The translations under genes and the position numbers were made by a program. Below the pieces are notes generated by a model, which saw only the letters and a list, made by a program, of their open reading frames with translations, was not told the origin of the DNA and did no database searches. This document shows, piece by piece, positions 2,340 through 53,275 of a stretch of DNA of 64,000 nucleotides. Origin of the DNA: a phage; sequence record PZ242158.1. The stretch is one strand, 5' to 3'. Within the stretch, counting starts at the first letter, position 1, and every line of letters starts with the position of its first letter.

Positions 2340-2765
2340 ATGATCTATGAAATGCCAAAACTGATTCGTGATGATGCCCAAAACGCTCACACCATTATTA
2401 TGGGCAAACGTATGGATATTATTTGTCATAAAGATTTCTGGGAAGGAAGTTACTTCACAGAGTATTTTGGTAAACTGGACAATGGTCTGCTGATCCAGTT
2501 CTACACCGATGCGGAAAACAACATTCACTGGGAGTTCGAAACTGAAGATATCCATAAACTTTTCACCTTCCTCGGTATTAAGGTTGAGGCCAAGTTTGAA
2601 GAAGGTGAGTGCGACGATTGTGGATTCTATGAGGTAACAGATTTCTACCTTCCAAGTGGTAAAAATCTCTACTACGAAAGCCACTTCGGCAACTCAAATA
2701 TGCCACAGGGTTGGGATGAGTTTTTGGAAATTGCAGAAGAGGAGCTGGAATACCGTGATTATTGA
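2340..2765 (+). CDS. hypothetical protein
   Basis: ORF 141 aa, co-directional. Confidence 0.5.
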   Translation: MIYEMPKLIRDDAQNAHTIIMGKRMDIICHKDFWEGSYFTEYFGKLDNGLLIQFYTDAENNIHWEFETEDIHKLFTFLGIKVEAKFEEGECDDCGFYEVTDFYLPSGKNLYYESHFGNSNMPQGWDEFLEIAEEELEYRDY

Positions 2766-3213
2766 TACTGTAAAGGGAGATCTAATCTCCATTTTCAAGA
2801 AAGGGTCAGGCCACATGATCCACGGTTGTAACTGCTTTCACACAATGGGTGCAGGTATAGCGAAAGATATTGCCCGTGAGTTCCCTCAAGCACTGGCAGC
2901 CGACAAAGAGACTGCTTATGGTAATCTAGACAAGCTGGGTATGTTTTCTTGTTGGGAGCATTTTGCCAAGGCCAGGGTCGTATATGGAATCAACCTGTAT
3001 ACCCAGTTCTACCCAGGGCCCAATGCTGAATACTTCTCAATCATGAAAGGTTTTGAGCGAGTCAACGAGGTATTCAAAGGTATGTCATTGCCGTTCTACA
3101 TTCCTAAAATCGGATGCGGTATTGGAGGTCTAAAGTGGAAACATGTAGAAGATGTAATTAATCTTGCAACCACAGATATTGATGTGGTTGTAGTAGAGTA
3201 CAAAAAGTGTTGA
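2755..3213 (+). CDS. macro-domain-like protein (ADP-ribose binding/processing); start placed at GTG overlapping upstream stop, ATG at 2656 is an alternative
   Basis: Motifs GDLISIF, HGCNCFHTMGAGIAKDI, PKIGCGIGGL resemble macro domain signature (GDIT / NAAN..GGGV / P.I..G..G). Confidence 0.5.
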   Translation: MIIDTVKGDLISIFKKGSGHMIHGCNCFHTMGAGIAKDIAREFPQALAADKETAYGNLDKLGMFSCWEHFAKARVVYGINLYTQFYPGPNAEYFSIMKGFERVNEVFKGMSLPFYIPKIGCGIGGLKWKHVEDVINLATTDIDVVVVEYKKC

Positions 3214-4257: not shown

Positions 4258-4277
4258 GAAAGTGCAGGAGATAAAGT

Positions 4278-4523
4278 ATGAACAAAGGGTGGACATTTGT
4301 AGACGGCGTTGAAAACATGCCTCTAGGAAAGTATATTGTAGCCATGGCAGATGAGAATGGTAAGGTAGATTTCGGAGCTTGCGAGATTGTTCTTGCAGGA
4401 TCTGGTGACCATGTGCACAAAACTGGGATAATTAACGGTCATTTCTACTTTGATTACAACCCTGTTGTGGCGTATATGGCTATGCCAGAATTCGAGTTCC
4501 CAAAGGAGGGTGCGGATGTTTAA
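4278..4523 (+). CDS. hypothetical protein
   Basis: ORF 81 aa with GGAG RBS. Confidence 0.45.
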   Translation: MNKGWTFVDGVENMPLGKYIVAMADENGKVDFGACEIVLAGSGDHVHKTGIINGHFYFDYNPVVAYMAMPEFEFPKEGADV

Positions 4524-4713
4524 GCTTAAATCTGCATGGAACATCGCTGTGGGAGACGAGATCCGCATCCCAGGCGGAAAGACAATCATGAAGATATCTC
4601 GTATCGAGTACGAAGGTGATCGTGTATTCCACATCTTTGCAGAAGATGGTCGAGAAATTTATATACAGGCAGGTTCTCACATTTATATCCGTAAGAAAGG
4701 GGACGACAAATGA
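4516..4713 (+). CDS. hypothetical small protein
   Basis: ATG preceded by AGGAGGG; overlaps upstream stop. Confidence 0.4.
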   Translation: MFKLKSAWNIAVGDEIRIPGGKTIMKISRIEYEGDRVFHIFAEDGREIYIQAGSHIYIRKKGDDK

Positions 4714-27966: not shown

Positions 27967-28437
27967 CTACTTAAATAGTAGTTCAAAATAGTGCAAAATT
28001 AACAGAAGTTGAACTACACCTAGTGCAACGGCGAGTATGTTAATCTTAGAATCGAAAAACTTCTTAACTTTTACTCTAAAAGGTTCCTTAATGTCCTTTA
28101 CGATCCTATCTATAGATGACCTCATATCTCTGATTACCATCCTGAACATTAAAGACGGATGCTCCCCCATCTCTGTAACGGAATCGAAAACATACTCTCT
28201 TCGGTCATAAGGGCCGCCAGCTCTGCGTATTAACCTCTCCACAGAGACCTCGAACGTCACACCTGTAACGTAATCATCTATAACAAGTCGTGACGGGTCT
28301 TTACCTTTACTATCAAGAGGTATCAAAGTTATCTTTCCAGATTTTGTTAAAATTTCCCCTTTTTCAAGCAAGGTGTACCAATGCTCTCTGCCAAGACTGT
28401 TGAGGCACGTTTTTACATATTTAACAAACATCGTCAC
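27967..28437 (-). CDS. hypothetical protein with C-terminal TM segment
   Basis: ORF 156 aa. Confidence 0.45.
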   Translation of the reverse strand: MTMFVKYVKTCLNSLGREHWYTLLEKGEILTKSGKITLIPLDSKGKDPSRLVIDDYVTGVTFEVSVERLIRRAGGPYDRREYVFDSVTEMGEHPSLMFRMVIRDMRSSIDRIVKDIKEPFRVKVKKFFDSKINILAVALGVVQLLLILHYFELLFK

Positions 28438-30568: not shown

Positions 30569-30883
30569 CTACCAGGTTACTGTCAAGTAGGCAACCGTAT
30601 TATTTTTCTCTGGGGAGATGCCAACAACATCTACCTGCAGACCTCCTGCCCTTAAATCTCCAACAATGTGCGGGAAGTAATCTGAGAGATGCGAGGGCAG
30701 ATTTATCGAAAATCCGCACCCCAGAAAGCCTGCTAACGCTTTATTTTGTATCTCCCCTACAATCGCATCATAAATGGAGTTAAGCTCGTCAGGGAGCGTT
30801 ACAGGGCGTTTTAGCGCTAGCTGGTGTAATTTGTCCTTAGCACTCATTTTCATTTCAGGTCTACCTCTGGGGGTGCCAACCAC
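30569..30883 (-). CDS. hypothetical protein
   Basis: ORF 104 aa. Confidence 0.45.
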   Translation of the reverse strand: MVGTPRGRPEMKMSAKDKLHQLALKRPVTLPDELNSIYDAIVGEIQNKALAGFLGCGFSINLPSHLSDYFPHIVGDLRAGGLQVDVVGISPEKNNTVAYLTVTW

Positions 30884-31383
30884 ATAAACGGCGGCAAGTC
30901 TAAACGGTTTTTCTTATCCCACACAAAATATGCATATGCTTGCCCGTCAGTTCTGCCGTTTGATTGAAATGATGGACGCTTAGATATTGTGATCACAGTA
31001 GTAGGTGCATTATCAAGCCACCATTCAAATCTGGCTTTGCTTTCCAGAAAATTAAGACGCAAAAGCATAATAACTACGTCAGCATCTTTCAACGCCTTGT
31101 CTACAAACTCACGAGCCAGGCTGTATGGTGGGTTGGTGATAATACAGTCAACATGGTTGTATTCTGTATTCAGATAGTCAACACCTTCTTGTATTTCTCC
31201 CCATGCAGATCCTAACGGCATACGGGAGTAGAACACACCTGAGGCACTATTCCTGCAAGGCTCTAAGTAGGTCCAGTCTTCTGGGAACGGAATAAGGTCA
31301 TACAGCCCTTCTGCACACCACTCCGGTGTCACATACTCATCGTAGGCGTTACGTTGTTCATCAGGTTTTCTAGCACAAGTCAT
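30850..31383 (-). CDS. small phage-type DNA N6-adenine methyltransferase (Dam-like)
   Basis: CIITNPPY catalytic motif IV in a 177-aa protein. Confidence 0.55.
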   Translation of the reverse strand: MTCARKPDEQRNAYDEYVTPEWCAEGLYDLIPFPEDWTYLEPCRNSASGVFYSRMPLGSAWGEIQEGVDYLNTEYNHVDCIITNPPYSLAREFVDKALKDADVVIMLLRLNFLESKARFEWWLDNAPTTVITISKRPSFQSNGRTDGQAYAYFVWDKKNRLDLPPFMWLAPPEVDLK

Positions 31384-31402
31384 GCAAATCTCCAGATCAT
31401 AA

Positions 31403-31422
31403 AAGCCCTCCGAAGAGGGCTT
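31403..31422 (-). terminator. hairpin terminator (AAGCCCTC-CGAA-GAGGGCTT)
   Basis: Perfect stem with T-rich flank on minus strand. Confidence 0.5.
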
Positions 31423-31434
31423 TAGAATTAATGT

Positions 31435-32484
31435 TTAAGCTTCTTCGACAATTCCTGCACCCAGGATTTTTTCATTGAGCTCTTTTGCTGTTTTAATAAT
31501 ATTGTCCACAAGACGCTTGCGAGTCTTATCTTTCACCTTAACCTCTTCACCGCCGTTCAGAGTAGTCTTCAATTGAGACAGAATATCCTGAAGTTCAACG
31601 ACAGAGAATCTCTGCAGATCTTCTGAAGTAATCTCACCCAGGGCAATTCGGACGGTCTCGCCACTTTCCATCTGCAGATTCAGGAACACAGTGTGAACAT
31701 CACCTTTCGAACCACCCGCTTTTGCAGATTCAACAGCATGAACTAACTCATCTAAAGATGTGCACTGATGAATCTCCGGAAGACCTGCTTCACCTAACAC
31801 GCCTTCTTCATCACCTTTTGCCAGAAGCTTTTTCGGTTTTTGTCCGTTCTGGATGCGTTGTATGTTGCCTTCATCCAGAATAATAGCTCCAGTGCGTGCT
31901 GCCAACTCTTCTCCGTCCAACCACACTTCGCCACCAGCTGTGATGGATGCGATCTCATCTTCTGTCAGCACCCCACCGTAGTATTTTTCGATCAGGTGTT
32001 CAAAACGTTTTTTCCAGTAGCTGACCTGAGTATTCATGTTAACACCGTTACCATAAGTGCCACCTTGATAGTAGTGGAACATAAATTCTGTGTCCGGAGC
32101 CACAGTGCGTTCTTTGCAACCAAGCCATAAGATTGTTCCAGCAGAGCAGCACATCCCTTCAGCATGTGCAACAACGCTTGCCTGAGACTCGCGGAATGCC
32201 TGCAGATAGGCCATTGCAATGTGCACGCAACCACCAGGGCTATTGATGATCACACGTATGCTTTCTTCCGGCTGAGCCATACGGATCGTCTGCAGACGAG
32301 ACATATGATCCTGCAGGTCCTCCAAATCGTCGATATAAAGAACGTGGTCAACAACAGGTGTTGGGTAGCTGTATGTTTCCATGATACCGCCCGGCATACC
32401 AAACATTTTATTACTCATAGGTTCGAAACCGTTCTGTTTTTCTTTCATGCCGTGTACCATGGTGCTGCGAGGTGTTAAATTCAT
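31435..32484 (-). CDS. ClpP-family serine peptidase with C-terminal extension
   Basis: INSPGG and GMCCSAGT motifs characteristic of ClpP/S14 fold. Confidence 0.6.
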   Translation of the reverse strand: MNLTPRSTMVHGMKEKQNGFEPMSNKMFGMPGGIMETYSYPTPVVDHVLYIDDLEDLQDHMSRLQTIRMAQPEESIRVIINSPGGCVHIAMAYLQAFRESQASVVAHAEGMCCSAGTILWLGCKERTVAPDTEFMFHYYQGGTYGNGVNMNTQVSYWKKRFEHLIEKYYGGVLTEDEIASITAGGEVWLDGEELAARTGAIILDEGNIQRIQNGQKPKKLLAKGDEEGVLGEAGLPEIHQCTSLDELVHAVESAKAGGSKGDVHTVFLNLQMESGETVRIALGEITSEDLQRFSVVELQDILSQLKTTLNGGEEVKVKDKTRKRLVDNIIKTAKELNEKILGAGIVEEA

Positions 32485-32544: not shown

Positions 32545-32979
32545 TTATTTAGCAATCACTATGGAGTACTTACGATTGTCAGAAGCATCACAACTCAGTG
32601 ATTGCCAATCTACCACATACCACGTATCATTGTCAACAATTACTTTATCGCCTGTTCTGTAGCAAGTGCTGCTTTCAATAATTCGAGACTCGATAAAGAA
32701 TCTGTGTCGGCGCTCACGTAGCAACGCTAAGTTGATTATATTACCACCGCTGTCCTTGGTCCACACATTCTTGGATCCTTTATTTGCCAAAATTGTCTCA
32801 CCGTTATAGACAAATAGGCAGTATATTTTATTCAGTTTCTCTTGTATTGTAGCCATACTGTCCTTCTCTTTGTTTTGTCCGATAATAATATCTAAAGCTT
32901 GCCTATTTGTCAACAACTGTTTTAGATATTTAAGGGTGGAATAACCACCCTTCTGTATTACTCGGAAACAGGGGTCCAA
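32545..32979 (-). CDS. hypothetical protein
   Basis: ORF 144 aa. Confidence 0.45.
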   Translation of the reverse strand: MDPCFRVIQKGGYSTLKYLKQLLTNRQALDIIIGQNKEKDSMATIQEKLNKIYCLFVYNGETILANKGSKNVWTKDSGGNIINLALLRERRHRFFIESRIIESSTCYRTGDKVIVDNDTWYVVDWQSLSCDASDNRKYSIVIAK

Positions 32980-34135: not shown

Positions 34136-34309
34136 TGTTGCACCCCCTCTTCATCTTCATGATGTTTCTTTTCACGCTTGTGTTTTTTCTTAAGCTCAAG
34201 CGCAATCTCTTTCTTGTACGCCTTCTTCAAGGCTTTTTTAGCCATTTGGCACCTCCTCTGCTTTCATTTTACGATAATTATACCTATCTAAACAAAGCTT
34301 TGTCAACAA

Positions 34310-34896: not shown

Positions 34897-34944
34897 GCTG
34901 CACCTCCTTTAGTTTATAACATGTTTAAAGGTTGATATATGGCT

Positions 34945-35937
34945 CTACAGGTTATTACCTGTCCTATGTTTACAACAAATCTCTCTATGCGCTGATTCTA
35001 CCATACTGAACACTTCAGGTCTGTAGTTAAAGAATTCGGTACTACCATCAAATTTTACAGGGAAGTTTATTTTATATTTACTGAAGGCTTTGTGCATAGA
35101 TTTTTCTACAGCCAGCATGTTTTCAGTTGATCCTTCCAACGTTTTCACTATGTGAAGATCGCGGATACCAGCTCCAGATCTTTGTGCACTTTTAAGTATC
35201 TGGTCTCTTCGCTTACTTTCATTATGACTGACCCCTATTTTCATAAATGTAGGTACTTCTGGATCATCAACCATAATGTAGAGTTTTCCGTTATCGTGTG
35301 ATAAAAATCCTGTTTTAGCGCATCTAGGGCAAGCATGTCCCTGCTTAAGACTGCTTGGTACGGTTAACCATGTGTGGCTACAACCTTTACAGCAGCACAG
35401 GACTTTCTTATCCCACCCAATAATTTCTTCCAATATCTCAACATAAGGATTTCTACTTCTTATGGACTCAACCCACTTTTCGTGTGGTGATGTTTTACTT
35501 TGTGAGATTCTTGACCCCTTGCAAACTGGACAACCTCTTTTCAAATTTATATGGTTATCAGGTGTCTGTGTAAAGTGATTTCCACAAGTGTTGCAGATTA
35601 TTTCTACCCTGTCTTTGCAAGTCTTGTAGTATACGAGAGAGTAGTCATATTTATCTCCATGGATTTCTTTGGCCCTTTCTACAAATTTAAGACCTTTATT
35701 ACACTTTGCAGCACGAGAAAGTTTTGCACAAAAAGGACAACCACGACCTTGCAAGTGTTTACAAGGTGCTTGCATAAAATCCCCATGGATTTGGCAGGTA
35801 ATGCAAACCTTCGCATAGCAATCCACGTACACTGTTTTCGTGTAATCGTATTTATAACCGTGAATGATTTTCGCCTTCTCTATAAACTCTTCTGTTGATA
35901 ATTTAGCCATTTCTTGTTTCCTAACTTCCCTAAACAT
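34945..35937 (-). CDS. free-standing homing-endonuclease-like protein (three zinc-ribbon repeats plus C-terminal T5orf172/GIY-YIG-like domain)
   Basis: Repeated HG.KYDYS...C..HG.F...P..H..G.GCP.C units; C-terminal YIMVDD..KIGVSHN. Confidence 0.5.
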   Translation of the reverse strand: MFREVRKQEMAKLSTEEFIEKAKIIHGYKYDYTKTVYVDCYAKVCITCQIHGDFMQAPCKHLQGRGCPFCAKLSRAAKCNKGLKFVERAKEIHGDKYDYSLVYYKTCKDRVEIICNTCGNHFTQTPDNHINLKRGCPVCKGSRISQSKTSPHEKWVESIRSRNPYVEILEEIIGWDKKVLCCCKGCSHTWLTVPSSLKQGHACPRCAKTGFLSHDNGKLYIMVDDPEVPTFMKIGVSHNESKRRDQILKSAQRSGAGIRDLHIVKTLEGSTENMLAVEKSMHKAFSKYKINFPVKFDGSTEFFNYRPEVFSMVESAHREICCKHRTGNNL

Positions 35938-35974
35938 CTGTATAGTGCCACATCCTTGTGGCTTTTGTCAAGTA

Positions 35975-37207
35975 TCAGCAACCACAACTTCCGTAGTGCT
36001 TAACTCGCTCGATAACTTCCGCTTGCTTACCTTTATTGTAAGGACGGGAGTTAGGACTGGAAAGATATCCAGACACTCTTCGGATCACTGAGATATATTG
36101 TTCATCGTGGCATCCGCACGCAGGGCAGCAGAACCCTTTAGCTGTTGCACTGAACTCACCAGAGAAACCACACTTGAGACATTTATCCACAGGTTGGTTA
36201 ATACCAAAATACATAATATGTTTATACCCGAAGTCAACAAGAGCCTCTAAAGCATCCAGGTTGTTTTTCAGGTTAGGTGTCTCTACGTATCCAATGTTGC
36301 CACCAGAGGAGATCATAGCAAAACCTTCCTCATACTCCCACTTATCAAAAGGAGAGCTATTTATCCACACTGGCTGATGGAAACTGTTGGTGAGATATTC
36401 ATGCTCGTGCTTCAACACTTCCGGGTATTCACGATCCAGACAGGTTGCAGCTTTATAGCATAGACTCTCAGAAGGAGTGCCGTACAAGCTAAATGCTAGT
36501 CTACTTTCCTTCTTGTATCGCTCACAAGCATCTCTCATGTGCTGAAGGATTCCAAGAGCTAAAGCCTTGTCACCCTCTCTGCCCAAAATCTGACAGGTTT
36601 CATACACACCAATATACCCAATACTGATGGAAGCGTACCCGTCATAGAAGAGTTTATCAATACTCTCTTCAGGATCCAGGCGAGCAAGAGCGCCTTCACA
36701 CCACATGATGGGGTTCTGCCCTGCCTTTGTTCCTTTTAGACGGTTAACCCTTACAAGGTGAGCCTCATATGCAAGATCCAAGTATTCGTCAAGAACTGCA
36801 AAGAAATCAACACCTTCCGTCTTAGCTTTTGCCGCAATCATTGGCAGGTTAAGGCTAACAACGCCTAAGTTAAATCTGCCAAGGTATTTCTCCTCGCCTG
36901 TTTCCAAGTCATTGTATTTGCTAAGAAAACTCCTGCAACCCATGCTAGTTACTTTGCCATCTGTCGAGCCTGTCACTTTTCTATTTAGTGGTACAGATAC
37001 GAAGTCAGGATAGATACGTTCTGCACAGCATTCCAGAGCTAATCGTTTCAAATCATAGTTAGGATCCCCAGGGTTCATGTTGACACCCTCTTCCAGGAAG
37101 AACAGCACTTTAGGGAACACAGGTGTGATACGTTCTTCACCAAGACCCATTTTGTGGACTTTCAAGTAATTTTTGGTAATCATTCTACCAAAGACCGAAG
37201 TGTCCAA
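35975..37207 (-). CDS. nrdD: anaerobic ribonucleoside-triphosphate reductase, C-terminal exon (glycyl-radical domain); true 5' boundary is the intron 3' splice site
   Basis: Zn site CPACGC and glycyl radical motif RRVSGYL near C-terminus. Confidence 0.8.
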   Translation of the reverse strand: MDTSVFGRMITKNYLKVHKMGLGEERITPVFPKVLFFLEEGVNMNPGDPNYDLKRLALECCAERIYPDFVSVPLNRKVTGSTDGKVTSMGCRSFLSKYNDLETGEEKYLGRFNLGVVSLNLPMIAAKAKTEGVDFFAVLDEYLDLAYEAHLVRVNRLKGTKAGQNPIMWCEGALARLDPEESIDKLFYDGYASISIGYIGVYETCQILGREGDKALALGILQHMRDACERYKKESRLAFSLYGTPSESLCYKAATCLDREYPEVLKHEHEYLTNSFHQPVWINSSPFDKWEYEEGFAMISSGGNIGYVETPNLKNNLDALEALVDFGYKHIMYFGINQPVDKCLKCGFSGEFSATAKGFCCPACGCHDEQYISVIRRVSGYLSSPNSRPYNKGKQAEVIERVKHYGSCGC

Positions 37208-37491
37208 ACCTAAACTTAATGTGATAAAAGGGGTTTGCGGTCCCCACCCTTATGTTTCCACAAGGCCAGACTATCTCTTGCCTGAAATCACACCGTGTGA
37301 TTCTTAATCAGACCCCTGCGTTTCGGAATCTTCCATAATCCCTACACCAAAAGGTTAGTCGTTACAACCGCCTCACTCCTTGTGAAGCTAGTCACGGGAT
37401 TGGCATAGCTTTCGCCTTAGCGTTCCCCGTTAGCCAGCGATCAGCTGACCCCTCATACTGAGGTTAGCAGAGTTTTAAAACGGCCAGTTTG
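37208..37491 (-). ncRNA. putative ORF-less group I intron interrupting nrdD
   Basis: About 280 nt separate two nrdD halves; contains R-like element ACGACTAA (P7 5' strand, plus coords about 37352-37368) and S-like element AAGAGATAGTCTGG (P7 3' strand, about 37265-37278); exon 2 frame reads ..GPQTPFITLSLG.. only after the intervening segment. Confidence 0.55.
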
Positions 37492-38355
37492 TTAACCGTT
37501 TACCGAGGTTAGTGTGTTGATCTGATAAAGCAACGTCTGCATGCTGTCAAACACGTCTTTATCTGTCATTTGCATTGCAACAGTTTCAGCATCCGGCAAC
37601 CAATGTTCCTGGCAAAATTTAAGGTTCTTCTCATAGGTTGCTTCAGCATACTGTGCCAGATAATGATCAATATGGCTCATAGTCTGACCACCATATTGAG
37701 CACTAGCTACCGCGCTAGAGATTTGACTAAGGATTGTTGTTGCAACCCCTATTGACTTCGGCTTACTGACATGGGCGTTGCCAATGTTGAATCCGTTTTC
37801 CAACATATCTGGATAATTTACCAAACAACAGTTTGTTAACGGACTGATCAAGTAGTCAAGATCATGCACATGGATGAAGCCTTTATTGTGCTCTTCTGAA
37901 ACACGGTCTGGCAGGATCTGTGTTGATGCAAGGTGTTTGCTAAGGATGCCTGCAAGCAGGTCACGATGAGTGTGTACATGATTAGTGGGCTTATTTGCGT
38001 TTTCTTTTGTAAATTCATCACAAGTTCGATCCAAGAAGCCACTAATATCTGCAAGCAGTTTTCCACCTGCCTCTCTGTTATTATCTCTTGTCTGTCTATA
38101 CTGGATGTATTCTCTGGCTGCACATTTTAAACCCATATCCATAAGAGCATCTTCAACAAGGATATGGATATTTTTTACAGAGATCGTGCACTGGTCGGTT
38201 GGTAGATTGTTAGCAACAACTTCATTAACCGCGCAGGCGATCCGGTAAGCTTCTTCTTCAGTATGTCCAGACTCAAGTAAGGCGGACTCTGCCGCCTTGA
38301 TCACCTTAATTCCGTTATAGAACTCTTCTCTACCGTCCCGTTTTACAACTTTCAC
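37492..38355 (-). CDS. nrdD: anaerobic ribonucleoside-triphosphate reductase, N-terminal exon (ATP-cone)
   Basis: MKVVKRDGREEFY.. ATP-cone start; annotated stop lies inside putative intron. Confidence 0.8.
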   Translation of the reverse strand: MKVVKRDGREEFYNGIKVIKAAESALLESGHTEEEAYRIACAVNEVVANNLPTDQCTISVKNIHILVEDALMDMGLKCAAREYIQYRQTRDNNREAGGKLLADISGFLDRTCDEFTKENANKPTNHVHTHRDLLAGILSKHLASTQILPDRVSEEHNKGFIHVHDLDYLISPLTNCCLVNYPDMLENGFNIGNAHVSKPKSIGVATTILSQISSAVASAQYGGQTMSHIDHYLAQYAEATYEKNLKFCQEHWLPDAETVAMQMTDKDVFDSMQTLLYQINTLTSVNG

Positions 38356-51961: not shown

Positions 51962-52723
51962 TCAATCCTCAACACAAGGTCTTGGATAGCCTCTGGATAA
52001 CTTCCACTCAGTTAGTGACATCCCTCCGTAGAGACAGTTTACTTCCCAAGACTTTCTTGCACAAACTGCCTCCCACCACGGATTTAGCCACTTCCTGTCG
52101 TTGAAGCATCTTAAGTTTCTTCCTTTGTTATCTCGTGCCCTCCAACAGGTATCTTTCTTAGACCAATCAATACCTGGCAGGATATTATTCTTGTGCGGGT
52201 TTGGAACTATCTTTAAAGCCTCTTCCGGGTTGGCTATTGACCATTCAACCCTAGACTTAGCCTCTTCGAAAGTGTCAAAATCTCCCAACCTAACATTTAC
52301 CCTATTTATCCTTCTACTTGCCCTCCACTTACCCTCTCTTTTCAGCCATACCACACCAGTCACTGTAGAGGTGTTATTGCTTTGCACATTTTCCAAGGCT
52401 CTCTTACAGTAGTTATCCCAAGGCTTCAACATTTGAAGGTTTTCTATCTTGTCTACAGGCACTCCGTTAGTAGAATTTTTCTTAGAGACGATATGATCGA
52501 TATGCCAAGTATCTGTGACACATCCGTAAAACATGTCAAAAATTTCCCTATGTCTGCCACGTTTAACATTTGTCAGCTTATTGTACACTTGGAAATATCC
52601 AGTCTTTTTGTTGTAGTGTCCAGCCCTATTTCCATTCCTACTGTAGCCAGGTTTCCAAAAGATTAGATCACCATCCTTGTACCAATAAGGATAGTGATCA
52701 TTAAAAAAGAAATGTATCTTCAT
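51962..52723 (-). CDS. HNH homing endonuclease with AP2 DNA-binding domain
   Basis: HIDH..N..N HNH core and AP2-like GVVWLKREGKWRASRRI...LGDFDTFEEA. Confidence 0.7.
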   Translation of the reverse strand: MKIHFFFNDHYPYWYKDGDLIFWKPGYSRNGNRAGHYNKKTGYFQVYNKLTNVKRGRHREIFDMFYGCVTDTWHIDHIVSKKNSTNGVPVDKIENLQMLKPWDNYCKRALENVQSNNTSTVTGVVWLKREGKWRASRRINRVNVRLGDFDTFEEAKSRVEWSIANPEEALKIVPNPHKNNILPGIDWSKKDTCWRARDNKGRNLRCFNDRKWLNPWWEAVCARKSWEVNCLYGGMSLTEWKLSRGYPRPCVED

Positions 52724-52748
52724 ATCTCAACACACCTCTGGTGTAGAA

Positions 52749-52770
52749 AGGTAGGCGAGTGGCCTACCTT
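52749..52770 (-). terminator. hairpin terminator (GGTAGGC-GAGT-GGCCTACC + T-tract)
   Basis: Stem-loop with flanking T/A tracts, potentially bidirectional. Confidence 0.5.
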
Positions 52771-52777
52771 TTGATCA

Positions 52778-53275
52778 TTAATCCAGAACAACACCTCCAA
52801 ACTCTACAAATTTCTTAAGCAACTTGTCAATGGTTTTTGGATTTTGGTCGTACTGGTTGTATGGGAACGAAGCCCAAATATTTGAGGTCTTACGTATAGC
52901 AGATTTAATATGACCGTTATCTATGTCTTCAAGTGCTTTACGTTCCCTGATCAACTGGATTGCCCACTTATCCTGGCTATCTGGTCCAAAATCCGGCAAC
53001 TTAAGCTGTTTTTTGTAGTGTTCCCAGTATTTGACAAGAAATTGATATTTACCGCAGGCTGTAGTTCTTTGCCCTTTTGAGTTAAACACTTTACCAGGGC
53101 GACCGTTTGCAAAAGGGTGCGTAGAAAAATCTGTAAAGATTTCAGGTTTTCCGTCCATCCCGTATGCTACAACATCGTATCCTCCACATTTGGTGGCAGG
53201 GTGGGTTGTTGTTCCCTCTGCCCAGCCAATAAGATCCAAGAAAGCTTTTCGTTGAACATTTTTATCAAGTTTCAT
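52778..53275 (-). CDS. endolysin, lambda R-type lytic transglycosylase
   Basis: NVQRKAFLDLIGWAEGT...CGKYQFL...WASFP closely parallels lambda R. Confidence 0.8.
   Translation of the reverse strand: MKLDKNVQRKAFLDLIGWAEGTTTHPATKCGGYDVVAYGMDGKPEIFTDFSTHPFANGRPGKVFNSKGQRTTACGKYQFLVKYWEHYKKQLKLPDFGPDSQDKWAIQLIRERKALEDIDNGHIKSAIRKTSNIWASFPYNQYDQNPKTIDKLLKKFVEFGGVVLD

Follow-up and report, generated by a model that had tools for sequence, protein, structure and literature searches.

The question raised by this locus is what a ClpP-fold serine protease with a long C-terminal extension does in a phage when its gene lies among early and nucleotide-metabolism genes and not next to the capsid genes. The original prediction left two possibilities, either a prohead protease that had been moved out of the structural module or a regulatory protease. 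The window, the whole 64-kb stretch of DNA that was analysed, is from a Vequintavirus (rV5-like) genome.

Identity of the gene

31435..32484, minus strand: gene for a ClpP-like serine protease of 349 aa, homologous to rV5 gp122 and JohannBauhin bas53_0174

The open reading frame is preceded by an AAGGA Shine-Dalgarno sequence located 7 nt 5' of its ATG. Its product is identical (100% amino acid identity) to a GenBank protein of phage ime, and the gene showed 99.8% nucleotide identity with annotated phage genes including that of the closely related BASEL phage JohannBauhin, where it is labelled a ClpP-like protease. PHROG 5410 covers the whole protein (E = 2.2e-154; residues 24-345 correspond to profile positions 4-322 of 323), and the CR9 ortholog likewise matched this profile over its full length. 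The gene is not new to annotation: it is gp122 of the coliphage rV5, listed as a ClpP-like protease in Table S3 of the rV5 genome paper. The likeness to rV5 gp122 and its Vequintavirinae orthologs (PHROG 5410) extends to sequence (98-100% identity), length (349 aa), neighbours (PhoH, gp121 and methyltransferase genes), promoter and terminator, with no difference of substance. Its finding here adds little; rV5 and upwards of 100 related phages have had the ClpP-like annotation for more than ten years. In the literature, however, no non-structural ClpP-like protein of a phage was found to have been studied functionally; there were only mentions at the level of annotation and the suggestion by Iyer et al. 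(2021) that patchily distributed phage ClpP genes are deployed against host proteins. A search for similarity to defence systems with PADLOC gave no match for the protease.

Catalytic core and fold

31849..32355, minus strand: ClpP-fold catalytic core, residues 44-212 (AF2 pLDDT 80-90, Foldseek, mapping onto E. coli ClpP)
32143-32145, minus strand: Ser114 (mapping onto E. coli ClpP; invariant in the family)
32074-32076, minus strand: His137 (mapping onto E. coli ClpP; invariant in the family)
31927-31929, minus strand: Glu186, at the position of the triad Asp (mapping onto E. coli ClpP)

A ClpP/S14-type peptidase had been predicted from the motifs INSPGG and GMCCSAG; both are present, as IINSPGG and EGMCCSAG, and the fold was confirmed at a level well above chance. 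An HMM search matched Pfam CLP_protease (E = 3.5e-12; 47 bits against a cutoff of 20.2), phmmer matched solved ClpP structures with E values down to 9e-8, and the AF2 model matched many ClpP structures in Foldseek (E of about 3e-10; target-normalised TM of about 0.65-0.73). The core retains the INSPGG oxyanion-hole motif and a long handle helix (residues 147-169), whose normal length makes the stacking of heptameric rings into a tetradecamer, as in ClpP, plausible. The triad of cellular ClpP (S97, H122 and D171) corresponds to Ser114, His137 and Glu186. The C-terminal extension, estimated earlier at about 150 residues, was measured at ca. 137-140 aa beyond the core.

Regions outside the core

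32356..32484, minus strand: N-terminal region, residues 1-43 (predicted disordered, pLDDT <50)
31699..31848, minus strand: variable linker, residues 213-262 (low confidence, pLDDT 44-65)
31438..31698, minus strand: lineage-specific C-terminal domain, residues 263-349 (AF2 models, conservation, profile search)

In the core alignment to E. coli ClpP, residues 1-43 occupy the place of the axial-loop/helix A segment. Helix A and the axial-loop region were not predicted in the AF2 model, and the segment carries a conserved motif despite its predicted disorder (consensus NxFG...NIYSYPVP), in which N25, Y40 and P41 are invariant in the alignment. The linker ranges from 23 to 50 aa across the family, and the Vequintavirus genus has an extra linker helix (residues 244-257) that Seunavirus-like relatives lack.

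The C-terminal domain, predicted to form a beta-hairpin and two long helices, has conserved positions at F293, E297, L298 and R322, is acidic in most members (pI 4.1-4.8) and is conserved across three Vequintavirinae genera. Its profile gave six matches among 1.84 billion representative proteins, five of which were family members or fragments; the sole match outside the family, a 1099-aa repeat protein, was marginal (E = 4.8e-4). A Foldseek search against BFVD returned one significant match, a protein of 303 aa and probably a member of the family, and no convincing fold match. By these sequence searches, the domain is an orphan confined to Vequintavirinae. Nucleic-acid binding of the HeH/SAP type was considered and rejected, as Pfam HeH and SAP matched one member each at E of about 0.1, hhalign against the Rho N-terminus gave a probability of 0.3%, and the domain is mostly acidic. 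Homology with the extension of ICP1 gp211 was also rejected, no similarity being detectable.

Comparison with cellular ClpP

The protein resembles cellular ClpP (MEROPS S14; TIGR00493; E. coli) in its fold (TM of about 0.7 at about 20% identity), Ser and His, oxyanion GG, handle helix, and an acidic residue at the position of E. coli Asp171. It differs in having a non-conserved docking pocket, another gating region at the N-terminus and an added C-terminal region of about 140 aa. One explanation of its role is that it serves as the proteolytic subunit of an ATP-dependent Clp protease, docking host ClpX or ClpA or joining host ClpP rings and thereby redirecting host proteolysis. The conserved fold, catalytic residues and handle helix, the passing of the Pfam CLP_protease cutoff, the sequence conservation of the N-terminal segment, the many records annotated in this way and the anti-host role proposed by Iyer et al. 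(2021) are consistent with this explanation.

However, among the ClpP models only the cutoff of this broad Pfam domain was passed. All the curated ClpP models failed widely (21-39 bits against cutoffs of 228-361); the clpP equivalog TIGR00493 gave 33.2 bits against a cutoff of 308.6, while E. coli ClpP scores 370. The pocket of E. coli ClpP in which the IGF/LGF loops of ClpX and ClpA dock is one that we take to consist of Y60, Y62, F82, I90, M92, F112, L114 and L189. In an alignment of 20-23% identity, for which the INSPGG, Ser and His motifs serve as anchors, seven of these eight residues are changed (Y60 to R77, Y62 to I79, F82 to E99, I90 to H107, M92 to E109, F112 to T127 and L114 to A129), and only the leucine is kept (L189, here L203). 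Five of the replacements are charged or polar (R77, E99, H107, E109 and T127), A129 is smaller, and I79 is conservative. R77, H107 and E109 hardly vary across the family, two of these pocket positions lying in a nearly invariant HAEG motif. The replacement of a hydrophobic pocket by conserved polar and charged residues suggests that the protein is not a canonical ClpXP/ClpAP subunit. Neither helix A nor the axial loop was predicted, as described above, and no AAA+ unfoldase is annotated in the ca. 91 kb viewed of the JohannBauhin reference genome. Since the docking pocket appears to be lost and the curated ClpP models fail, this lineage is probably mislabelled as an ATP-dependent protease subunit, and we regard a role as a subunit of the host Clp system as unlikely.

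Gene neighbourhood and transcription signals

30850..31383, minus strand: next gene downstream, for a putative N6-adenine DNA methyltransferase (weak matches to Pfam Dam and EcoRI_methylase)
31399..31420, minus strand: rho-independent terminator GCCCTCTTCGGAGGGCTTTTAT, 14 nt past the stop codon, identical to rV5 t122
32545..32856, minus strand: upstream gene (103 aa), rV5 gp121 homolog, PHROG 5456 (JohannBauhin annotation, PHROG matches), co-transcribed with the ClpP-like gene
32885..32913, minus strand: sigma70-type promoter TTGACA-17-TATTAT (11/12; promoter scan), equivalent to published rV5 P121
32958..33746, minus strand: PhoH-like P-loop ATPase, rV5 gp120 homolog (Pfam PhoH E = 3.6e-47; synteny)
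34277..34306, minus strand: perfect-consensus sigma70 promoter TTGACA-18-TATAAT (promoter scan), the same as rV5 P118 (Table S4)

The placement of the gene among early and nucleotide-metabolism genes, as originally described, was borne out: upstream on the same strand are PhoH, nrdG, nrdD, glutaredoxin, nrdB, nrdA and thyA genes, and downstream is the adenine methyltransferase gene. The promoter at 32885..32913 is predicted to drive gp121 and the ClpP-like gene, and the terminator that follows corresponds to t122, for which a published prediction gives -14.9 kcal/mol in rV5. The P118-equivalent promoter is situated upstream of gp118-gp119-PhoH, and the stretch from there to the ClpP-like gene showed no terminator. 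The late-promoter motifs published for rV5 are all absent from the ClpP-like locus.

The order PhoH, PHROG 5456 gene and ClpP-like gene, followed by the adenine methyltransferase gene, is shared by the window, JohannBauhin, Seunavirus-like SEW_6S and Certrevirus CR9. In Seunavirus-like and Certrevirus phages, the PHROG 5456 gene likewise stays close to the long ClpP-like gene, and the methyltransferase gene follows the ClpP-like gene in Seunavirus-like, Certrevirus and Barbavirus phages.

Distinction from head maturation proteases

The window contains no portal, prohead protease, scaffold, decoration, capsid or sheath genes; the late module begins with the i-spanin gene at 63319-63714, ca. 35 kb off on the opposite strand. 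Immediate adjacency of the major capsid and scaffold genes would have spoken against the earlier description of the locus, and these genes lie elsewhere: in the 135.6-kb JohannBauhin record, the head module occupies 2.6-7.1 kb and the ClpP-like gene is at 105.8 kb, so that the head genes are ca. 35 kb from it and on the other strand. The module has the order portal, protease (139 aa), scaffold, decoration and major capsid protein (MCP), and the 139-aa protein is a Peptidase_S78_2 (XkdF-type) member (E = 9.6e-18; 64.8 bits against a cutoff of 24).

The protein might nevertheless be a second or ancestral prohead protease that still takes part in capsid assembly, its C-terminal domain targeting procapsids or being scaffold-like, as in lambda gpC/Nu3 fusions. 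Many prohead proteases bear C-terminal capsid-targeting or scaffold domains, and the architecture of a core with an extension of about 140 aa resembles that of many head proteases, e.g. Gordonia phage Blino gp4 (428 aa), a true head protease used as a control, which is encoded between portal and scaffold. The best curated match was NCBIfam NF045542 (Clp_rel_HeadMat, ClpP-related head maturation protease) with 60.6 bits, and a prohead protease/MCP fusion model gave 52 bits, both above any cellular ClpP model; head-maturation PHROGs matched at 1e-22 to 1e-8. Both scores are, however, far below the respective cutoffs (120 and 475 bits), and NF045542 gives even E. coli ClpP a higher score (83.9 bits), so that the match of the protein to this model is not discriminating. 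Prohead proteases usually digest themselves and leave. For this reason, the absence of gp122 tryptic peptides (n = 5) from the published rV5 virion mass-spectrometry table is weak evidence against such a role. Besides, virions of rV5 were found to contain gp133 and gp137, whose genes follow a few kb downstream within the block; location alone thus does not exclude a virion role for gp122.

Compared with ClpP-related head maturation proteases (NF045542; Blino gp4), which are its nearest curated model, are likewise phage-encoded and frequently have C-terminal extensions, the protein scores below the cutoff, its gene is outside the interval of portal, scaffold and capsid genes, and a separate S78_2 protease and a scaffold belong to the head module. 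Its promoters are of the sigma70 type and not late, it has its own terminator, and all the homologs of the clade that were sampled are in nucleotide-metabolism clusters. As a statement on function, the idea of a displaced prohead protease was not supported, as the JohannBauhin head module has its own S78_2 protease, and we consider work in capsid assembly distinctly unlikely; as a statement on origin, it holds a grain of truth in that Clp_rel_HeadMat, though below its cutoff, is the best curated match.

Related phage genes and linkage with PhoH

ClpP-like loci of 11 phages (about nine lineages), sampled by hand, were compared. In all 11, the ClpP-like gene lies amid nrd, thyA/DHFR, dNMP kinase, dCMP deaminase, ligase or polymerase genes; a position beside capsid genes was seen in no case. 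Pakpunavirus, Barbavirus and phage P26059A have a separate head-module protease, annotated or position-equivalent, in addition to the ClpP-like gene. The short ClpP-like proteins of PHROG 1827 (Pakpunavirus, Otagovirus, Barbavirus, N4-like Alteromonas and T5-like Klebsiella phages) and ICP1 gp211 share with the present protein a core of 24-35% identity, the same Ser and His, a setting in replication/nucleotide-metabolism clusters (in many cases directly behind PhoH) and coexistence with another, dedicated head protease. They differ in that most PHROG 1827 proteins have 180-245 aa and no extension, while ICP1 gp211 has an extension of its own (about 160 aa) that is unlike the C-terminal domain described here. 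These proteins (PHROG 1827/5410) form a widespread, deeply diverged phage ClpP-like clade that coexists with a dedicated prohead protease.

The recurrence of PhoH raises another explanation, in which the ClpP-like protein and the neighbouring PhoH-like ATPase, possibly with gp121, constitute a phage-specific module for ATP-dependent degradation or RNA/protein turnover. PhoH is located at most three genes upstream of the ClpP-like gene in 7 of the 11 phages, spread over some five independent lineages: Vequintavirinae (three genera), ICP1, Otagovirus (where the genes overlap), Acinetobacter phiAB441 and Barbavirus. With only 21-42% identity between the genes of different lineages, the arrangement is either old or recurrent and not a recent cassette, and no terminator separates the two genes here. 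On the other hand, tblastn and profile searches found no PhoH anywhere in the Pakpunavirus genome despite its ClpP-like gene, and no adjacent PhoH is present in the N4-like, T5-like and schizoT4-like carriers. The divergence of the two proteins gave no signal of co-divergence either (Spearman -0.34, p = 0.13). PhoH as an obligate partner is weakened by the Pakpunavirus case and by this lack of signal. In addition, PhoH proteins are described in the literature as RNA helicase-like and not as protein unfoldases, and the linkage could merely reflect a shared nucleotide-metabolism module. A joint ClpP-PhoH module thus seems quite improbable.

Conservation of the active site

Ser114, His137 and the GG of the oxyanion hole are invariant in relatives of about 40% identity and out to ICP1 and other phages. 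The acid position is Glu186 here, Gln in Seunavirus-like and most non-Vequintavirus members, and Asp in ICP1, with Glu or Asp found in the rV5-like phages, ICP1 and Pakpunavirus. Judging from the alignment, Glu186 at the Asp position would be compatible with catalysis, if not canonical. The frequent Gln and the high divergence from active ClpPs might suggest a catalytically weak or inactive ClpP-fold protein acting as a scaffold or inhibitor, e.g. by poisoning host Clp, but this is very improbable given the invariance of Ser114, His137 and the GG, a pattern expected of selection for catalysis, and the acidic residues just listed.

Proposed role and its implications

On balance, the protein is probably a non-virion, cytoplasmic accessory serine protease with a ClpP fold, encoded in a replication/nucleotide-metabolism block and distinct from the canonical ClpXP/ClpAP subunits. 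The regulatory protease offered as the second possibility at the outset agrees with all of the context evidence. In such a scheme, the gp121-gp122 unit would be transcribed by host sigma70 RNA polymerase from its own promoter to its own terminator, and would probably also be reached by read-through from the PhoH promoter. Catalysis would depend on the predicted residues Ser114-His137-Glu186. In Vequintavirinae, the core appears to be extended by a flexible linker and the orphan, mostly acidic domain of about 85 aa, which may serve as a module for partner or substrate recognition or for regulation around a ClpP-like ring. The protease would presumably assemble into rings and work alone or with phage partners, independently of an ATPase, with host or phage proteins as its substrates in the early or middle phase of infection.

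A bolder version of this role, conceivable but doubtful, is that the protein forms the core of a phage-specific proteolytic machine independent of ClpX and ClpA. A polar HAEG/R77 surface would replace the docking pocket, and the acidic C-terminal domain, possibly together with gp121 and/or PhoH, would select host proteins for early destruction; the targets could be regulators of defence, replication or nucleotide metabolism. If this is true, large lytic phages would widely carry a viral accessory protease of a new class.

The ClpP-like protein described here belongs to a diverged ClpP-fold clade that is kept in the replication/nucleotide-metabolism modules of many large lytic phages (rV5-like, ICP1, Pakpunavirus, N4-like and T5-like), and to whose core Vequintavirinae have added an orphan domain. 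The clade is easy to test in tractable phages, e.g. those of the BASEL collection and ICP1. If such proteins degrade host factors, they would represent a widespread tool of host takeover or counter-defence.

Identity and predicted fold of the ClpP-like protein

31435..32484, minus strand: ORF of the ClpP-like protease gene (349 aa), with IINSPGG and EGMCCSAG in its translation

A ribosome-binding site (AAGGA) is located 7 nt upstream of the ATG. The counterpart in JohannBauhin, a closely related Escherichia phage (Vequintavirus), showed 99.8% DNA identity and is annotated as "ClpP-like protease"; 119 phage records matched the gene at ≥80% identity, and a phage ime protein was 100% identical to the 349-aa protein. 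Its rV5 counterpart, gp122, was listed in 2013 as "ClpP (ATP-dependent) protease subunit, 349 aa", and PHROG 5410 ("ATP-dependent protease") matched end to end (E = 2e-154). The gene is, therefore, already in databases and known by annotation, and our literature search found no functional study of the protein. Eighteen GenBank records named 'Campylobacter phage' (e.g. MG065654, MG065666, MG065674, and MG065684), whose genomes are rV5-like in size, were ca. 98% identical to 31435-32484; these probably represent coliphage genomes that were mislabelled or entered as contaminants.

The original prediction had deduced a ClpP-type fold from INSPGG and GMCCSAG motifs, and this was borne out by the presence of both motifs and by the agreement of Pfam, ClpP structures, and AlphaFold2/Foldseek. 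The HMM search proposed along with it gave a match to Pfam CLP_protease at residues 59-168 (E = 3.5e-12; 47 bits, cutoff 20.2), and sequence matches to solved ClpP structures reached E = 9e-8 and aligned the active-site Ser and His. In an AlphaFold2 model built from a 14-sequence family alignment, the core (residues ca. 44-222) was confident (pLDDT 80-90), residues 1-43 were disordered, the linker had low confidence, and the C-terminal domain (residues ca. 263-346) was separate from the core. Foldseek aligned the core with many ClpP structures (E ~ 3e-10; target-normalised TM 0.65-0.73; ca. 20% identity). The C-terminal excess, predicted at about 150 residues, was ca. 140.

Active site and docking pocket

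When the protein was mapped onto authentic E. coli ClpP, S97 and H122 corresponded to S114 and H137, both invariant, and D171 corresponded to Glu186, a position occupied by Gln in Seunavirus-like members and by Asp in ICP1. Both the oxyanion GG motif and the long handle helix were kept. The residues which we take to form the E. coli ClpP pocket for the IGF/LGF loops of ClpX/ClpA mapped as Y60 to R77, Y62 to I79, F82 to E99, I90 to H107, M92 to E109, F112 to T127, L114 to A129, and L189 to L203; by this mapping, the hydrophobic pocket is not conserved. Within the family, R77 and the H107-A-E109-G motif hardly vary. Among NCBIfam models, the protein failed TIGR00493 clpP (33 bits against a cutoff of 308.6; E. 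coli ClpP, 370), the other cellular ClpP models (21-39 bits against 228-361), and its best match, ClpP-related head maturation protease (60.6 bits against 120). Thus, it is a ClpP-fold superfamily member belonging to neither curated family. Docking to ClpX/ClpA would probably be absent, and the label "ATP-dependent protease subunit" is not supported for the rV5-like lineage; that the protein is a true ClpX/ClpA-dependent subunit, as annotated, is unlikely. The pocket loss and the failure against the curated ClpP and head-protease models are additions of this analysis.

Relation to the head module

63319-63714: i-spanin gene, matching JohannBauhin and directly preceding terminase; start of the lysis/terminase/head module
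27967..28437, minus strand: ORF (156 aa), rV5 gp133 by position, a few kb downstream of the ClpP-like gene

The head module of JohannBauhin runs terminase, portal, prohead protease (139 aa), scaffold, decoration protein, and major capsid protein. The 139-aa protein (4276-4695) matched Pfam Peptidase_S78_2 (XkdF-type; E = 9.6e-18, above cutoff) and PHROG head-protease entries. No head genes were present in the 64-kb window; since only i-spanin of these head-side genes lies in it, the capsid genes start just past its end, opposite in strand to the ClpP-like gene and ca. 35 kb away from it. The ClpP-like gene is not the prohead protease. Of the original claims, the ClpP fold and the location away from capsid genes held, but the suggested displaced prohead protease was contradicted by the separate S78_2 protease in the JohannBauhin head module.

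Five gp122 tryptic peptides were sought among the published mass-spectrometry data for rV5 virions, and the table lists none of them; because head proteases usually exit the capsid, this is weak evidence. In rV5, gp133 (a one-TM protein reported among the predominant virion proteins by mass spectrometry) and gp137 were detected in virions and are encoded a few kb downstream in gp122's own block; position in this 'early/middle' block is, therefore, no safe guide to a non-virion role. A residual role in capsid assembly is improbable.

The S78_2/XkdF-type prohead protease has phrog_1530 as its top PHROG, which is labelled 'DNA methyltransferase', as is the position-equivalent Pakpunavirus ORF54 (2632-3102) between portal and scaffold; this looks like a spread mis-annotation of a head protease.

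Transcription signals

34306-34277, minus strand: perfect-consensus promoter (rV5 P118), upstream of gp118-gp119-PhoH
32913-32885, minus strand: sigma70-type promoter TTGACA-17-TATTAT, equal to the published rV5 promoter P121
31420-31399, minus strand: hairpin GCCCTCTTCGGAGGGCTTTTAT, 14 nt past the stop codon, identical to the published rV5 terminator t122

The P121-type promoter precedes the 103-aa gene (gp121, PHROG 5456), which is followed by the ClpP-like gene. No terminator lies between the P118-type promoter and the ClpP-like gene, and the late-promoter motifs published for rV5 were all absent around it. These promoters, the terminator, and the lack of late motifs indicate a predicted early or middle expression by host RNA polymerase, together with PhoH and nucleotide-metabolism genes.

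Other features of the window

37492..38355 and 35975..37207, minus strand: split nrdD, insertion at 37208-37504
34908-35942: ca. 1.03-kb insertion relative to JohannBauhin, between nrdG and nrdD
34945..35937, minus strand: ORF in the latter insertion (330 aa), treble-clef zinc finger (DUF4379) and T5orf172 domain
62085-62894, plus strand: cluster of six tRNA genes, just 5' of the i-spanin gene
51968-53234: indel near the endolysin/ligase region, ca. 1.27 kb against ca. 0.42 kb in JohannBauhin (ORFs 51962..52723 and 52778..53275)

The nrdD gene (anaerobic ribonucleotide reductase) is interrupted by ca. 260-280 nt absent from JohannBauhin; one half carries the ATP-cone and NRDD positions 1-154, and the other NRDD positions 172-562 and the glycyl-radical domain. 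On the correct strand, the insertion aligned with the full length of the Rfam Group I intron model in a local search (29.3 bits, E = 1.3e-5); as the gathering score is 50, a group I intron is probable but unconfirmed. T4 nrdD contains such an intron. The domains of the 330-aa protein suggest a likely mobile gene of homing-endonuclease type.

Gene neighbourhoods in the wider clade

The core (residues ca. 40-200) was found in 942 phage records by tblastn, and neighbourhoods were inspected in 11 phages.

Gene order around the ClpP-like gene
rV5-like (window): nrd genes, PhoH, gp121, ClpP-like, methyltransferase
Seunavirus-like SEW_6S: PhoH, DprA-like, PHROG 5456, PHROG 7224, ClpP-like, methyltransferase
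Certrevirus CR9: as in SEW_6S
ICP1: nrdAB, PhoH, two genes, gp211
Otagovirus phiPsa267: ClpP-like gene overlapped by PhoH
Acinetobacter phiAB441: PhoH, two small genes, ClpP-like
Barbavirus: PhoH, ClpP-like, Dam methylase
Pakpunavirus: ClpP-like ... dCMP deaminase, ligase
N4-like Alteromonas phage: RNR alpha/beta 5' of ClpP-like
T5-like Klebsiella phage: dNMP kinase 5' of ClpP-like
Vibrio K567: DHFR 5', nrdD 3' of ClpP-like

The gene was beside capsid genes in none of the 11, and Gordonia Blino gp4, a ClpP-related head protease taken as control, lay between portal and scaffold/capsid as expected. Barbavirus and P26059A have a separate, annotated head-module protease; in Pakpunavirus, the gene at the equivalent position is a candidate. 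Identity between lineages was 21-42% for the linked PhoH genes and 23-35% for the PhoH-linked ClpP-like genes; the arrangement is, therefore, either old or recurrent. Since Pakpunavirus has the ClpP-like gene and its genome lacks PhoH, PhoH is not obligatory; a machine coupled to PhoH seems a doubtful explanation.

C-terminal extension and proposed role

The extension is made up of a linker of variable length (23-50 aa) and a conserved ca. 85-aa domain (a beta-hairpin and two long helices; F293, E297, L298, and R322 conserved). It occurs in Vequintavirus, Seunavirus-like, and Erwinia-phage members and, with weak similarity, in Certrevirus. The domain profile gave six matches among 1.84 billion representative proteins: five were family members or fragments, and the sixth was a marginal 1099-aa repeat protein (E = 4.8e-4). 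A HeH/SAP-like nucleic-acid-binding domain was rejected, as Pfam matches were sub-threshold and in single members only, hhalign gave no support, and most members have an acidic domain (pI 4.1-4.8). ICP1 gp211 has an extension of similar length that is unrelated; the extensions were, therefore, added independently to the core. The orphan status of this domain and the recurrent PhoH linkage are also added by this analysis.

Given the invariant Ser and His, a non-catalytic role is very improbable. We consider it somewhat probable that the protein is an accessory serine protease of ClpP fold that is cytoplasmic, is expressed along with the replication and nucleotide-metabolism genes, and differs from the S78_2 prohead protease. 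For patchy phage ClpP genes, Iyer et al. (2021) suggested that the substrates are host proteins. The lineage-specific acidic C-terminal domain would most likely serve in partner or substrate recognition, or in regulation.
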